DNA from: Promethearchaeota archaeon
GTDB lineage: Archaea; Asgardarchaeota; Thorarchaeia; Thorarchaeales; Thorarchaeaceae
Length of the DNA: 64,000 nucleotides
Reading direction: 5' to 3'
Assembly: GCA_048939765.1 (NCBI GenBank)
Contig: JBHLPF010000010.1
Location: 11,723 to 75,722, forward strand
Shown: positions 50,250 to 58,118 of the stretch, one piece after another
Layout of the letters: each line of letters opens with the position of its first letter
Numbering within the stretch: position 1 is the stretch's first letter
Made by a program: the position numbers and the translations under genes
Notes under the pieces: generated by a model
The model's database searches: none
The model's input: only the letters and a program-made list of their open reading frames with translations
What the model was told of the DNA's origin: nothing

Positions 50250-50287
50250 ATGTAGAGTTCTACATATACATATGTAGACGCCTACAT
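50250..50287. promoter_or_regulatory. two PadR-type ATGT-N8-ACAT operators overlapping the padR promoter
   Basis: ATGTAGAGTTCTACAT is at 50250-50265 and ATGTAGACGCCTACAT is at 50272-50287, 22 bp centre to centre. On the minus strand, TTTATATG (complement of 50285-50292) is a TATA-box candidate. Confidence 0.65.
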
Positions 50288-53304: not shown

Positions 53305-53892
53305 TTGCGAGACCAGGATGATGGAAGCTTAATCTACAAAGCGGTTCTAATCGGCGACGGAGCAGTTGGAAAGACATCCATACGTCGCAATTATCTGGGG
53401 GAGGACTTCATTGAGGGCCACCTTGCAACAATAGGAGTTGACCTCGCGACCAAAAAAGTGGTCTTTGGCGAGAACGTCGTGAAATTCATCATCTGGGACT
53501 TAGCAGGCCAGCCAACCTTTGAGAAGGTACGGGGTCACTATTATCACGGATGCAACGGGATTGTGCTTGTCTATTCTGTTGTCGATCGAGACTCCTTTGA
53601 CAATGCCTCCAAGTGGTTGGTTGAAGCTTTCAAGAATATGGGACCCCTGCCTCCTACAGTAATTGTAGGGAACAAGATTGATCTTCGACCTTTGCGGTCA
53701 GCAGACAAGATAGTGACCACTGATGAAGGTCTGAAATTCATGGAGTACTTCATAGATAAACTTGGAGTTCCTGCCATCTTTAGAGAGACCAGTGCAAAGA
53801 CAGGCGAGAACATCCTTGATACATTTGAGGAACTTCTTCGCATGATGTCTGAGGCTGAAACTGGAAAAGAGTCTGACAAATTCGTTGGCTGA
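53305..53892 (+). CDS. Rab-like small GTPase (paralog 2 of a tandem pair)
   Basis: G1 is GDGAVGKTS, G3 is WDLAGQ, G4 is GNKIDL and G5 is ETSAKTG. It has a TTG start. It shares long identical runs with the upstream paralog. Confidence 0.9.
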   Translation: MRDQDDGSLIYKAVLIGDGAVGKTSIRRNYLGEDFIEGHLATIGVDLATKKVVFGENVVKFIIWDLAGQPTFEKVRGHYYHGCNGIVLVYSVVDRDSFDNASKWLVEAFKNMGPLPPTVIVGNKIDLRPLRSADKIVTTDEGLKFMEYFIDKLGVPAIFRETSAKTGENILDTFEELLRMMSEAETGKESDKFVG

Positions 53893-54039
53893 AGTATCCA
53901 AGAACCCTGCAAATTCAATTCATTTACCTGAAGTCTAGCCCTAGGAAGGCGTGTACTGTTTAGAAGACGCGTCATTCCGAATACGCCCCATGTTTGCTGG
54001 TCGCTTGCCGAATCGATTTATGCGAAATATTTCAATTTG

Positions 54040-54116
54040 GATATATCGTGTTCGATACATATATAAAGCATGGTGGTGATTATAATACAGTCCCGATATA
54101 TCCTTCCGGATATAAA
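54040..54116 (+). promoter_or_regulatory. two phased GATATATC dyads upstream of the small YHS gene
   Basis: The first pair is GATATATC at 54040-54047 with GATACATA at 54054-54061. The second pair is GATATATC at 54095-54102 with GATATAAA at 54109-54116. Each pair is offset by exactly 14 bp. TATA-like boxes overlap the second half-sites. Confidence 0.45.
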
Positions 54117-54216
54117 CAGTCTTGGGAAATCTGAGCAAGGGCTCATGCCGCAATAAAACGATTGTCAGCGTTCACAGATCCTGATGGCTGCATTAAAGGG
54201 ATTGCAGGTGAATAAA

Positions 54217-54369
54217 ATGCCGAAATGTCCAGTTTGTGGTATGATGGGAAAACCCCACATTAAATCAACCTACAAGGGGAAGACATACTATTTCATGAGT
54301 TTCCAGCATAAGGAGATGTTTGACGCAAATCCAGAGAAATTCAACCTTGAAGTGGGAGTTGACGAATGA
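54217..54369 (+). CDS. small YHS/TRASH-clan metal-binding protein (variant)
   Basis: The sequence is MPKCPVCGMMGKPHIKSTYKGKTYYFMSFQHKEMFDANPEKF. GGTGA lies 5 nt upstream of the ATG at 54217. The track start at 54184 is also possible. Confidence 0.7.
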   Translation: MPKCPVCGMMGKPHIKSTYKGKTYYFMSFQHKEMFDANPEKFNLEVGVDE

Positions 54370-54423
54370 TCACGGCACTACTCTGATCCAACAACGTAAG
54401 ATCATCCTTGTGCTTTTAATCAG

Positions 54424-54450
54424 CCCCCCACTTCCCCTCCTTTTTTCCCC
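54424..54450 (+). terminator. polypyrimidine / oligo-T tract downstream of the YHS gene
   Basis: The tract CCCCCCACTTCCCCTCCTTTTTTCCCC contains a T6 run at 54441-54446. Archaeal termination commonly uses oligo-T tracts. Confidence 0.35.
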
Positions 54451-54472
54451 ACACGACTCTAATATCTCCACT

Positions 54473-54494
54473 GATATATCCCATTCGATATATT
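54473..54494 (+). promoter_or_regulatory. phased GATATATC dyad upstream of the PadR-TRASH gene
   Basis: GATATATC is at 54473-54480 and GATATATT at 54487-54494, a 14-bp offset. The second half-site merges into the TATA-like sequence ATATATTTATATT. Confidence 0.45.
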
Positions 54495-54680
54495 TATATT
54501 TCTCCACTCAAAGTTCTTGCTAAATTGGCGTACAGATAGTGAGATCGAGGAATGGCCCCAGCAAATACGCAACTTTTATGGGGCTGATGCCTTAATAGAG
54601 CCGCAGTTGTTGCAGAGAATCCCTGGAAGCAAGACGCTGCGGACCACAGGTAATTCGGGCTCCAAAAGGGTGTTAGTACA

Positions 54681-55151
54681 TTGGCAGAAGAGAAGGCAAT
54701 CCAGAAAATGAAGGAAGCGGATCTTGACATACAAGAAATGCTGGCTGATTTTTCTCAATTCTATATAATATTGATGTTGAACGAGAAACCCTCGCATGGC
54801 TATGGTCTCATGAAGGGATTTGAGCGCCGAACGGGGAAGAAACTGAGTCCCGGAACACTCTATCCGTTTCTACAACAACTTGAAGAAAAGAAACTAGTTA
54901 CCCAGAAGCAACAGGATGTTGGAAAGAAACGGAAAATCATCTACTCGTTGACAAAGAAAGGCAAGACATTGAGTGACCGGCTGTTCAAGCGTTTTGCAGC
55001 AATTACTGCTTCTGCACTTGGATCCAGTCTTGAGGTGTGCGCAAGCTGTGGTGCCCGGATCTATGAGGGTAGCCATCACGAAATAGTGGATGGAACTAAT
55101 CTTGCCTTTTGTTGTATTCATTGCGCAAAGGCCTTCAAACAGAGCTTATAA
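54681..55151 (+). CDS. PadR-type wHTH fused to a C-terminal TRASH metal-binding domain (candidate copper-responsive regulator)
   Basis: The PadR core is ILMLNEKPSHGYGLMKGF...GTLYPFLQQLEEKKLV. The C-terminus CASCG-x20-CCIHC (nt 55038-55148) fits C-x2-C-x19-22-C-x3-C. The start is TTG at 54681 or ATG at 54708. Confidence 0.8.
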   Translation: MAEEKAIQKMKEADLDIQEMLADFSQFYIILMLNEKPSHGYGLMKGFERRTGKKLSPGTLYPFLQQLEEKKLVTQKQQDVGKKRKIIYSLTKKGKTLSDRLFKRFAAITASALGSSLEVCASCGARIYEGSHHEIVDGTNLAFCCIHCAKAFKQSL

Positions 55152-55196
55152 CCTGTGACTACGGGCCCGCATCAGGAGTAGCCAGAACTAAATACT

Positions 55197-55218
55197 TATA
55201 TATCGTACACGATATATC
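55197..55218 (+). promoter_or_regulatory. phased dyad / perfect palindrome in the copA promoter
   Basis: TATATATC is at 55197-55204 and GATATATC at 55211-55218, a 14-bp offset. ATATATCGT-AC-ACGATATAT forms a 9-bp-arm inverted repeat. The first half-site doubles as a TATA box about 60 nt upstream of the copA ATG. Confidence 0.5.
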
Positions 55219-55262
55219 GGATAGGACATTAACTAGTAGGCTTCCTACCAGGGTGAAGAGAG

Positions 55263-58118
55263 ATGGCTCAGAAAGTTGAAACTGAAGCAAAGGCGTCAAG
55301 AATATCAATGCGCATTGAAGGAATGCATTGTGCCTCGTGTGTAGCCAAAATCGAGGACGCTTTGACAAATCAGGACGGAGTAATAAAAGCCAGCGTTAGC
55401 TTGCTTGATGAAAAAGCTGTTGTTGAATACGAATCTAATTTGGTGGATAGAAGCGTTTTAGAAAAAGCTGTAGAGTCAACTGGTTATCGTGCACGACGGC
55501 CAACAATGTCCATCACCCTTAACGGAGCCTCATCTTCTCTAGATTGGAATCTGATCATGAAAACCATGGAGCAACTAGAGGGAGTCATTACTGCTCGCGA
55601 ATTCAGGGACACCAGACGCATTTTGATTGAATATGATGATGAGCAACTGACCTACAAGATAGTTAGAAAAACACTGAAGGGCATTGGAGTTGAAATCGAG
55701 GAGGCTGCAGGAATTGAAGCAGATCGAGAATCCCTCGCTAGAGAGAAAGAAATCCACTATTATTCCCGTCTACTTGCATTCTCAGTTTTGTTGACAATTC
55801 CCGTCGTGCTTATCCACTTTGGCACTCTAACTTCGCTGTTTCCATCTGAAGAGCTGAGGAGGCTTCTCATGTTCCTTCTTGCCACGCCGGTTCAATTTAT
55901 TGCAGGTTACCCCTTCTACAAGTCAGCTCTCAAGGCGGCACGCCATTTTACTACAAATATGGATACGCTCATAATGCTGGGCACAAGCGCGGCTTACTTT
56001 TACTCGGTGGCAACTACCTTCTTGCCACAATGGAATGTTTACACGCCATTCTATGATTCAGCAGTTCTTCTTCTTAGCTTCATCCTACTTGGTCGAACTC
56101 TCGAAGCAATTGCAAAAGGACGCACGTCAAAAGCGATGCGAAGTTTGATGGATTTGCAGGCCAAGGTCGCCACAATTTTACGGGATGGCGAGGAAATGAT
56201 ACTCCCTATTGAAGATGTTGAAGTCGGAGATATAGTCCTGATAAAGCCTGGGGACAAAGTCCCAGTAGATGGCGAAGTCATTGATGGTCAGTCGAGTGTT
56301 GACGAGTCGATGATAACAGGAGAGCCAGAACCAGTCAAGAAGAAAGTAGGCGATCCAGTAGTTGGTGCAACCATCAATAAGAATGGCGTTCTTCGAGTCA
56401 AAGCAACTAAAGTTGGAATGGACACCGTCTTGTCTCAGATTGTCAAGCTTGTCGAAGAGGCTCAAACAAATAAGCCGCCTATTCAGCGAAAAGCCGACGC
56501 TATAGCGAGTAAATTCACGCCTGTTGTCATTATATTGGCGATTTCAACTTTCATTTTCTGGTTGTATATTTCCCCCATTCTGAATATAACTGACCCAATC
56601 TCGCGCGAATTTGTTGAATGGACACAAGCCCTGACCTTCAGTATTGCCGTACTTGTAGCAGCCTGCCCCTGTGCTTTGGGACTGGCTACTCCAACGGCAA
56701 TCATGGTCGGCATAGGAAAAGGAGCGCAGCATGGTATTCTGATAAAAGCTGGAGAAGGCCTTGAAGTCATTCCAACTGTTGACGCAATAGTATTCGACAA
56801 GACGGGTACTCTCACGATCGGAAGGCCCACGGTAACAGATTTGCACACATACGGAGATTACAGTGATGCAGAAGCTCTGCGACTCATCTCATCGGTGGAA
56901 AAGAACAGCGAGCATCCTCTAGCCGAAGCAGTAGTAAGATACACCGAAGAGCTTGGAATCAACATCCCGAATGCGTCTGATTTCGCCTCAACGACTGGAA
57001 GAGGTGTCCAGGCATTGGTAGAAGGACAGTTGGTTCTTGTGGGCAATGATAAGTTCATGAGAGAGAATTCCGTGGAAATTGCAGATGCTGAAGCCCAAGG
57101 ACTGATGCTACAGGAGAAAGGAAAGACGACCATCTTTGCCGCAATTGAAGGCGAGATGCTTGCACTCATAGGCATTGCTGACAAGCTCAAAGATACCTCC
57201 ATCCAAGCAGTTGAGAGCTTGAAGAGAATGGGCATAGAAGTGTGGATGATTACGGGCGATAAAGAGGCAACTGCACTAGCAATAGCAGAAACCGTTGGAA
57301 TTGACAAAGTGCTTGCAGAGGTTTTGCCAGCTGATAAAGCTGAGAAAGTCAAGGAACTGCAGCGCAGTGGATTGACTGTGGCAATGGCAGGTGATGGCGT
57401 CAACGATGCAGTTGCGCTTGCGCAAGCTGATGTCGGCATTGCGTTGGGGTCCGGAACTGACGTATCAGTTGAGACCGGTGATATCGTTCTTGTTAAGGAC
57501 AATTTGCTCGACGTGGTCACTGGAATCCAGCTGGGCGGGAAGACAATGTCTAAGATAAGGCAGGGATTCTTCTGGGCATTAATCTACAACATAGCGCTGC
57601 TTCCGCTTGCTGCAGGACTGTTGTTTCCGTCAGCTAACATTGTGTTGCGTCCAGAGGTTGCAGGTCTCGCAATGGCATTATCAAGTGTCAGTGTGGTGAC
57701 CAATGCATTGACACTCAATCGGTTCAAGCCTGAGCGTGCAACGCATCTGATTGGAAGTGTACCTCCCGCCGCCTATCAGGAAGGCGATGTCGCTGTCGAC
57801 CCGATCTGCAAGATGAAAGTGGAGATAGCGACGGCAGACCTATTCAGCGACTACAAAGGCAAGAGGTACTACTTCTGCAACCAATACTGTAAGGACACAT
57901 TTGATGGGAACCCTGCAGAGCATGAGGAGGTGACGGATACGGAAGAAGAGATTCCAAAGGTCGCAGTTGACCCTATCTGCAAAATGGACGTGGATGTGGC
58001 CACAGCTGAGCTGTTCAGTGACTTCGAGGGAAAGAGGTACTACTTCTGCTCGCTCAATTGCAAGCAGACCTTTGATGCAGACCCAGAGAAGTATCGCGAC
58101 CAAGATGCCAGAGTCTAG
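55263..58118 (+). CDS. copA: copper-translocating P1B-type ATPase with N-terminal HMA, degenerate second HMA and two C-terminal YHS domains
   Basis: Motifs GMHCASC (HMA), TGEP, CPC ([12 protein letters not shown]), DKTGTLT, SEHPLA and GDGVNDA are present. The tail carries DPICKM...KRYYFC twice. GGTGA lies upstream of the ATG. Confidence 0.95.

Follow-up and report, generated by a model that had tools for sequence, protein, structure and literature searches.

The 64,000-nucleotide stretch analysed here (the window), from a Promethearchaeota archaeon, carries a copper locus consisting of a gene for a small YHS-domain protein, a gene for a PadR-type regulator with a C-terminal TRASH-like module (padR) and copA, which encodes a CopA-type P1B ATPase. 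A palindromic element, (G/T)ATATATC-N6-GATATAT(C/A), occurs four times in this locus and, within the genome of the organism, is confined to the front of these three copper-handling genes. The palindrome is very probably the docking site of the adjacent PadR-TRASH protein. We consider it likely that the element serves as operator for a copper-released repressor, which would block TBP and TFB and thereby control the YHS gene, padR and copA.

Four inverted repeats in the copper locus

A preliminary description of the window had reported a palindromic octamer recurring in four pairs with a fixed 14-bp offset. All eight half-sites were read base by base in the sequence, and their distribution was as described, with two pairs upstream of the YHS gene, one upstream of padR and one upstream of copA. 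Site 1 (54040-54061), distal in the YHS promoter region, consists of GATATATC (54040-54047), GTGTTC and GATACATA (54054-54061). Site 2 (54095-54116), proximal in the YHS promoter, consists of GATATATC (54095-54102), CTTCCG and GATATAAA (54109-54116). Upstream of padR lies site 3 (54473-54494), formed by GATATATC (54473-54480), CCATTC and GATATATT (54487-54494), and upstream of copA lies site 4 (55197-55218), formed by TATATATC (55197-55204), GTACAC and GATATATC (55211-55218).

GATATATC equals its own reverse complement, and a pair of octamers offset by 14 bp therefore makes up an inverted repeat, ATATATC-N6-GATATAT, with a 6-bp spacer. All four pairs have this form, over 18-22 bp, and the copA copy, already singled out as an inverted repeat, proved to be a perfect 20-bp palindrome, ATATATCGT-AC-ACGATATAT (55198-55217). 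In the window GATATATC was found five times against 1.0 expected, four of the five at the copper locus, and for ATATATC-N6-GATA, with 0.04 matches expected on the two strands together, 7 were found, each of them within 54041-55217.

Specificity within the genome

The genome of the organism (G000) comprises 3.37 Mb in 108 contigs. It contains eight matches to ATATATC-N6-GATA, seven of them in the 1.2-kb copper locus, and three to TATATC-N6-GATATA, all at the copper locus. When ATATC-Nk-GATAT was scanned through the whole genome for k = 0-20, copies from the locus appeared at k = 6 only (4 of 12 matches); the background was flat, with about 6.5 matches at each spacing. Orthologous sites were used to build a symmetrised weight matrix, which ranked sites 4, 3, 1 and 2 as the top four matches in the 3.37 Mb (29.0, 27.7, 25.1 and 25.0 bits, respectively). 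Scores then dropped from 25 to 18 bits, the fifth match (18.0 bits) being a weak site that overlaps site 1; outside the locus no score exceeded 17.3 bits. The genome scan for the paired motif, which the preliminary description had named as a test of its proposal, thus found it absent from other promoters, its four best matches being the four sites. In 1488 generic upstream regions TATATC occurred 97 times and GATATA 95 times, which is no enrichment over the roughly 89 expected. Some further matches in G000 were considered as members of the regulon and rejected: C96:3415, C106:43614 and C27:2215 lie inside long open reading frames, and C23:11771 is intergenic but scores 15.5 bits. A scan for sigma-70 promoters and terminators gave results at chance level, with a model that is not relevant to an archaeon.

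Most of the promoters combine a strong site with a weaker one in the 14-bp register, the two sharing a central GATATATC; this is why the octamer is so conspicuous. The fifth-ranking site of the genome (54026-54047), AATATTTC-AATTTG-GATATATC, overlaps site 1 in this way. Site 3 is overlapped by CTAATATC-TCCACT-GATATATC (54459-54480; 13.8 bits), and site 4 by a downstream site, GATATATC-GGATAG-GACATTAA (55211-55232; 13.6 bits).

Conservation and co-occurrence with the regulator gene

In 40 relatives searched in six frames, clear regulator orthologues turned up in 10. In this set the palindrome is present at every orthologous locus whose regulator is at least 59% identical, and it was not found at the loci of other PadR paralogues. 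Alignment with orthologous cop loci, the other test that had been named, showed arms kept and spacers free before the YHS gene, padR and copA. This placement is independent of gene order, as the genes are co-directional in G000, G005, G010 and G011, divergent in G015 and G020, and joined in a padR-copA operon in G002, G004 and G006. Neither test having contradicted it, the operator interpretation is supported. The consensus of 65 non-redundant sites from 17 loci, (G/T)ATATATC-b-N4-v-GATATAT(C/A), has information-rich arms and a nearly information-free spacer; the A at position 0 is 85% conserved, though it lies outside the selection pattern.

The exact 18-mer TATATC-N6-GATATA was searched in 41 genomes. 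Eleven genomes of the family that have an orthologue hold 46 copies, 40 of them within 10 kb of the regulator gene (9/9 in G011, 8/8 in G015 and 4/4 in G005). Fourteen family genomes in which no orthologue was detected hold nine copies; six of these (five in G007, one in G009) are on short or cut contigs, and at least four of the six lie beside cop-type or related genes. A backwards-read control pattern had no match in the genus.

Among GTDB species genomes, a scan identified 462 loci encoding a relative of the regulator, and sites were counted in the best 80 of the 462. Within these 80, two to six N6 sites were present at each of the 15 loci whose regulator shows 64% identity or more. The count falls with identity, to mostly one or two sites per locus at 52-63% and to none at 51% or less, a clade drawn mainly from Bathyarchaeia. 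Most loci of the latter clade have instead a single GATATATC or an N7-spaced pair 20-90 nucleotides upstream of the regulator gene, for which about 0.1 per locus is expected by chance. The Bathyarchaeia-type loci L077-L126 mostly show exactly one GATATATC before the PadR-TRASH gene, as ATATATC-N7-GATATATC or with TGTGTAT...ACAT-like flanks; across phyla the core word GATATATC is kept, while spacing and partner arms change. The distant homologues P0113 (Bathyarchaeota) and P0078 have no N6 site.

Compared site by site, site 1 is kept in seven genomes, about 55 bp from site 2. At site 2, ACAGTCCCGATATATCC-N4-GGATATAAA is invariant in six of seven genomes (G000, G005, G007, G009, G011, G015); the seventh (L045) differs in the flank alone, GGATATAAA being invariant in all seven. 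Conservation extends to the octamer ACAGTCCC, which immediately precedes site 2. GATATATCnCnTnnGATAnATTTATA of site 3 is kept in six genomes. Site 4 is identical in G005 and present in G015, G010, G020, G011 and L045; its palindromic spacer is kept in part of the relatives, being identical in G005 and G015 but different and non-palindromic in G010 and G020. As for the weak sites, AATATTTC of the 54026-54047 site is kept in the alignment of relatives. The 54459-54480 site is present in G005, has TTATC as its left arm in G011, G015 and G020, and has no recognisable counterpart in G010. A stronger second site takes the place of 55211-55232 in G015 and in copA2 of G011. Duplication of a promoter module was rejected as the origin of the four copies, their flanks and spacers being unrelated.

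The PadR-TRASH regulator

The regulator gene (54681-55151, forward strand) encodes 156 amino acids from a TTG start that is supported by homologues. The protein belongs to the PadR family (PF03551; 60.6 bits, cut-off 27), and a profile of 51 homologues matched the PadR entries 5dym, 3elk and 5x11 of the PDB (E 8e-10 to 5e-8). An AlphaFold2 model (predicted local distance difference test score 85.6) has the layout of PadR subfamily 2, with predicted helices at residues 2-35, 40-51 and 57-69, wing strands at 73-90 and a further helix at 92-114, and thus the single-domain fold with a C-terminal, presumably dimerising helix that is typical of PadR proteins. The top Foldseek matches of the model were Rv3488, TA0346 and LmrR, with TM-scores up to 0.85 on the target. 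The DNA-binding residues of Bacillus subtilis PadR are Tyr20, Tyr42 and Lys67; the two Tyr residues open alpha2 and alpha3, and the basic residue lies in the wing (PMC5728393). Their counterparts here are Y41, Y61 and the wing: among the 51 homologues H39-G40-Y41 and Y61-P62 are invariant, and the wing (G81-K-K-R-K) is basic.

At the C-terminus lies a module, C120-x2-C123-x20-C144-C145-x-H147-C148, all of whose Cys and His residues are invariant in the 51 homologues. The TRASH signature reads C-x2-C-x19-22-C-x3-C. It is found here as C120-x2-C123-x20-C144-x3-C148, with invariant C145 and H147 in addition. Many homologues carry precomputed PF11494 or PF24273 matches. Homologues of the regulator bear the names Thorarchaeota or Hermodarchaeota, which places the organism among the Asgard archaea. 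Judged from its sequence, the regulator is a PadR winged helix fused to a TRASH-like Cys/His module.

A second PadR gene in the window, with a Cys-rich tail, offers a contrast. The motif of the copper locus had been said to differ from the operator of this other PadR, and ATGT-N8-ACAT sites were indeed found upstream of the latter gene, as two ATGTAG-N4-CTACAT palindromes 22 bp apart (50250-50287). These sites span 16 bp, as does the repeat of the copper locus overall, which makes a PadR dimer footprint of such size plausible.

Predicted promoter geometry and proposed mechanism

The tRNA genes of the genome are preceded by an A-rich box and then TTTAAAT, TTTATATC or ATTATATC, about 31-38 nucleotides before the mature 5' end. 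The copA promoter matches this layout of B recognition element (BRE) and TATA box, with a BRE-like AAATAC followed by the TATA-like box TTATATATC (55196-55204). The left arm of site 4 coincides with TTATATATC, the best TATA candidate at copA. Transcription of copA is predicted to start near 55226, which would put the operator at about -27 to -10, and the weak site at 55211-55232 would cover the predicted start-site region. The overlap of one half-site with a TATA-like box, as first described, holds at all four sites. The right arm of site 1 continues into TATATAAA (54060-67), that of site 2 forms the TATA-like ATATAAA, and TTTATAT (54493-54499) directly follows and overlaps site 3.

At the YHS promoter the centres of sites 1 and 2 are 51-56 bp, or about five helical turns, apart in all relatives examined, a spacing that suggests cooperative binding or a loop. 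Relatives that keep the distance seen at 54040-54116 include L021, L033, L035, L039, L040 and L045. At padR, the site lies about 186 nucleotides before the start codon in the clade with 73-96% identical regulators and 15-55 nucleotides before it in the 59-66% clades. The leader between site 3 and the padR start (54495-54680) has a similar length in six genomes and a diverged sequence. Its sole conserved island is a block on the forward strand at 54568-54583, CGCAACTTTTATGGGG (GGCAACTnTTATAGG in relatives), which may represent either a leader element or an additional promoter without an operator. An Rfam search of 53800-55400 (E<=1) gave no match, so that the padR leader contains no known RNA element. 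A small open reading frame in the leader (54517-54711) was rejected as coding, having no Pfam match, poor conservation and indels.

In the mechanism that we propose, a regulator dimer would recognise (G/T)ATATATC-N6-GATATAT(C/A), whose inner TATC and GATA cores are about one helical turn apart. The sites would lie on or against the TATA/BRE of three promoters, with a pair 55 bp apart at the YHS gene and a single site each at padR and copA. With a weaker site overlapping most of them 14 bp away, the protein could cover the promoter from TATA box to start site. Without copper, the bound regulator would exclude TBP and TFB or RNA polymerase from the promoter. Cu(I) or Ag(I) bound to the C-terminal Cys4/His TRASH module would cause release, and release would induce the pump along with the small YHS protein and, by autoregulation, the regulator. 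The analysis shows that the motif exists, that it is specific to the locus genome-wide, that it is conserved and that it occurs together with the regulator gene; that the PadR-TRASH protein binds these sites, that it represses and that copper is its effector is what we infer.

Several points weigh against this proposal. The promoter assignments draw on sequence resemblance and are themselves predictions. The padR site lies upstream of its TTTATAT box, a geometry that fits activation as well. If two dimers bound with their centres 14 bp apart, neighbouring recognition helices would be separated by only about 3 bp, so overlapping sites might be occupied either jointly or alternately. The TRASH-type Pfam models score below the cut-off of 27 on the window's protein (PF11494, 24.8 bits; PF24273, 21.8 bits), and comparison of PadR recognition helices among the paralogues did not discriminate between operator types. 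Finally, no site was found near the regulator gene in G019, whose orthologue is 58% identical and lies in a G+C-rich context.

Alternative explanations

The same operator and regulator might function in copper-dependent activation, or in a dual manner, the protein staying bound and aiding recruitment of TBP and TFB in the presence of the metal. An activator model was proposed for CopR of Saccharolobus solfataricus and Pyrococcus furiosus, and the P. furiosus CopR sites lie directly upstream of the BRE and mediate activation (PMC7830388). At padR, as at several promoters of relatives, the palindrome immediately precedes a TTTATA box and so is placed like the P. furiosus motif, and PadR-family activators exist, AphA being named as a gene activator. 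Yet the best TATA candidate is the operator arm itself both at copA and at the proximal YHS site, the second site often falls over the predicted start site, and most characterised PadR proteins are ligand-released repressors (PMC5728393). Taken together, these observations make activation unlikely, though least so at padR, and we prefer the copper-released repressor.

Real regulatory sites could also be bound by another protein, for instance a second PadR paralogue or a metal or redox regulator encoded elsewhere. The genome holds about eight PadR-like genes, and in relatives similar palindromes stand before two PadR genes devoid of a TRASH module (L036 in G003 and L037 in G001); we counted the latter palindromes also as evidence for a link between the motif and the PadR family. 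Against another binder, the motif tracks the presence of the PadR-TRASH orthologue, adjoins its gene in many gene orders, including directly before the gene itself, and no second regulator gene is conserved in the locus. Because of this co-occurrence of motif and regulator, we regard binding by another factor as very improbable. Least credible of all, and in our judgement barely worth retaining, is the explanation that the motif merely reflects A+T-rich TATA/BRE context or chance or duplicated sequence with no specific binder. The arms are TATA-like, it is true, and TATATC also ends some of the genome's tRNA promoters. But the hexamers are not enriched in generic upstream regions, the paired motif is confined to the locus, its four copies have unrelated flanks and spacers, and arms but not spacers are kept across genomes. 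Generic promoter context was rejected on the strength of the genome scan, the spacing scan and the upstream-region counts.

Genes of the locus and probable additional targets in relatives

The YHS gene (54219-54369, forward strand; alternative ATG at 54184) encodes a stand-alone YHS-domain protein of 50 amino acids, MPKCPVCGMM..., which scores 35.1 bits with the Pfam YHS model (cut-off 30.3) and is a putative copper-binding protein. Its orthologues in relatives lie behind the same sites. The copA gene (55263-58118, forward strand), whose ATG is 45 nucleotides past the end of site 4, encodes 951 amino acids with Pfam matches to E1-E2_ATPase, Hydrolase, HMA and two YHS domains. P1B-1 Cu(I)/Ag(I) ATPases are marked by CPC in transmembrane segment 4, YN in segment 5, MxxSS in segment 6 and an N-terminal HMA domain with CxxC. 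The CopA translation shows CPC, YN and MxxSS (as MALSS) as transmembrane signatures, GMHCASC in keeping with its N-terminal HMA domain, and two YHS domains at the C-terminus. Ras/Rab-like GTPase genes lie upstream of the copper locus. Of the 80 related loci, 48 encode a CopA-like ATPase within 2.5 kb (26 of the 32 Asgard-type loci and 22 of the 48 Bathyarchaeia-type loci), and in the relatives compared PadR-TRASH is the sole transcription factor gene that is consistently part of the locus.

In some relatives the palindrome also precedes a YHS gene that is followed by the gene for a LonB/LonC-like AAA+ protease (806-817 amino acids). Other genes preceded by it in relatives are a CcmF-like gene, genes for a NIF3/DUF34 protein, for a DUF6114 membrane protein and for an ABC transporter of the MacB/FtsX type, and an operon whose last gene encodes an FTR1-family permease. 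These additional site-bearing genes were seen at L022 (G015:C5; 6888-11915), L023/L040/L031 (G011:C16), L024 (G020:C7) and L032-L034 (G007). The regulon is therefore larger there than in G000, where it comprises the YHS gene, padR and copA.

Contig G011:C16 carries two copA/PadR-TRASH pairs within 25 kb (L031, 3325-6571; L023, 6155-6598), whose regulators are 54% and 78% identical to that of the window. Both pairs lie amid the same palindrome, with nine exact copies on the contig and none elsewhere in G011. When 53893-55262 of the window was compared with L022/L039 (G015:C5), gene order among these close relatives was seen to differ exactly at the operator-bearing promoters: in G015, about 6.5 kb containing a second YHS gene, the Lon-like protease, NIF3 and FTR1 genes lie between the GTPase-side YHS gene and padR. 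This arrangement hints at rearrangement or deletion between similar promoters.

Tandem palindromes of the TATATC-N6-GATATA type, TATATCGATTGCGATATA and TATATCACATATGATATA, lie directly upstream of the two non-TRASH PadR-family genes mentioned above (L036, 3228-3261, G003:C11; L037, 3173-3225, G001:C18), one of which is followed by ABC transporter genes; a further case is at G020:C20:57353. The operator word seems to be common to a wider PadR clade in these archaea.

Relation to known regulators and significance

The archaeal CopR/CopT proteins (P. furiosus PF0739, Thermococcus onnurineus CopR, S. solfataricus CopR and CopT) combine an Lrp/AsnC-type helix-turn-helix domain with TRASH; they form octamers that wrap about 150 bp, with a motif, TTNNCAWWWTGNNAA, upstream of the BRE (PMC7830388). 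The system described here resembles them in joining a DNA-binding domain to a C-terminal TRASH module, in the position of the gene beside copA and a gene for a small metal-binding protein (the YHS-padR-copA cluster), and in its multiple semi-palindromic sites at cop promoters, its own included (PMC7830388). It differs in that the DNA-binding domain is like PadR subfamily 2, with no HTH_AsnC or Lrp match, the motif is ATATATC-N6-GATATAT rather than TTNNCAWWWTGNNAA, and the TRASH module has an extra invariant Cys and His (C-C-x-H-C).

With the PadR regulators B. subtilis PadR, Lactococcus lactis LmrR, Mycobacterium tuberculosis Rv3488 and Thermoplasma acidophilum TA0346 the protein shares its fold and the two Tyr residues and basic wing. 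PadR traits also include a palindromic, dimer-sized operator of 16 bp, autoregulation and regulation of a neighbouring gene for detoxification or export (PMC5728393), which here are predicted. Unlike our protein's presumed mode of sensing, known PadR members respond to organic ligands through an inter-domain or inter-subunit pocket, and the operator word differs from the ATGT-N8-ACAT of PadR. A literature search combining PadR, TRASH and copper returned no relevant paper, and in the papers searched no PadR member was described as a copper sensor or as carrying a TRASH module. Archaeal repressors such as MDR1, LrpA, Phr and TrmB occlude the TATA/BRE or the start site, often from tandem sites. 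The predicted positions of the present operators, on the TATA box or between TATA box and start, are similar, whereas the protein families and effectors are different.

PadR-TRASH loci number at least 462 and occur in Thor-/Hermod-type Asgard archaea, Bathyarchaeia, Brockarchaeota and others. Whether PadR-TRASH proteins make up a separate, widespread and as yet undescribed class of archaeal copper sensors, with operators built on GATATATC across phyla and, in Asgard archaea, 14-bp-register arrays on which several dimers would coat the promoter from TATA box to start site, is in our view an evenly poised question. What is new is the PadR-type DNA-binding domain and its distinct motif; TRASH-fused archaeal copper regulators as such are of a known kind. 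To our knowledge, almost nothing has been established experimentally about gene-specific transcription control in Asgard archaea. A compact and specific cis-element, a small soluble regulator and a hypothesis centred on Cu(I)/Ag(I) make this locus an easy first test case. The extra sites in relatives point to a wider metal-stress regulon and could guide the annotation of uncultured lineages. If correct, our proposal would define one of the first transcription factor-operator-regulon units known at the sequence level in Asgard archaea, and would mean that the TRASH copper module has been joined to at least two unrelated archaeal DNA-binding scaffolds, one Lrp-type and the other PadR-type.

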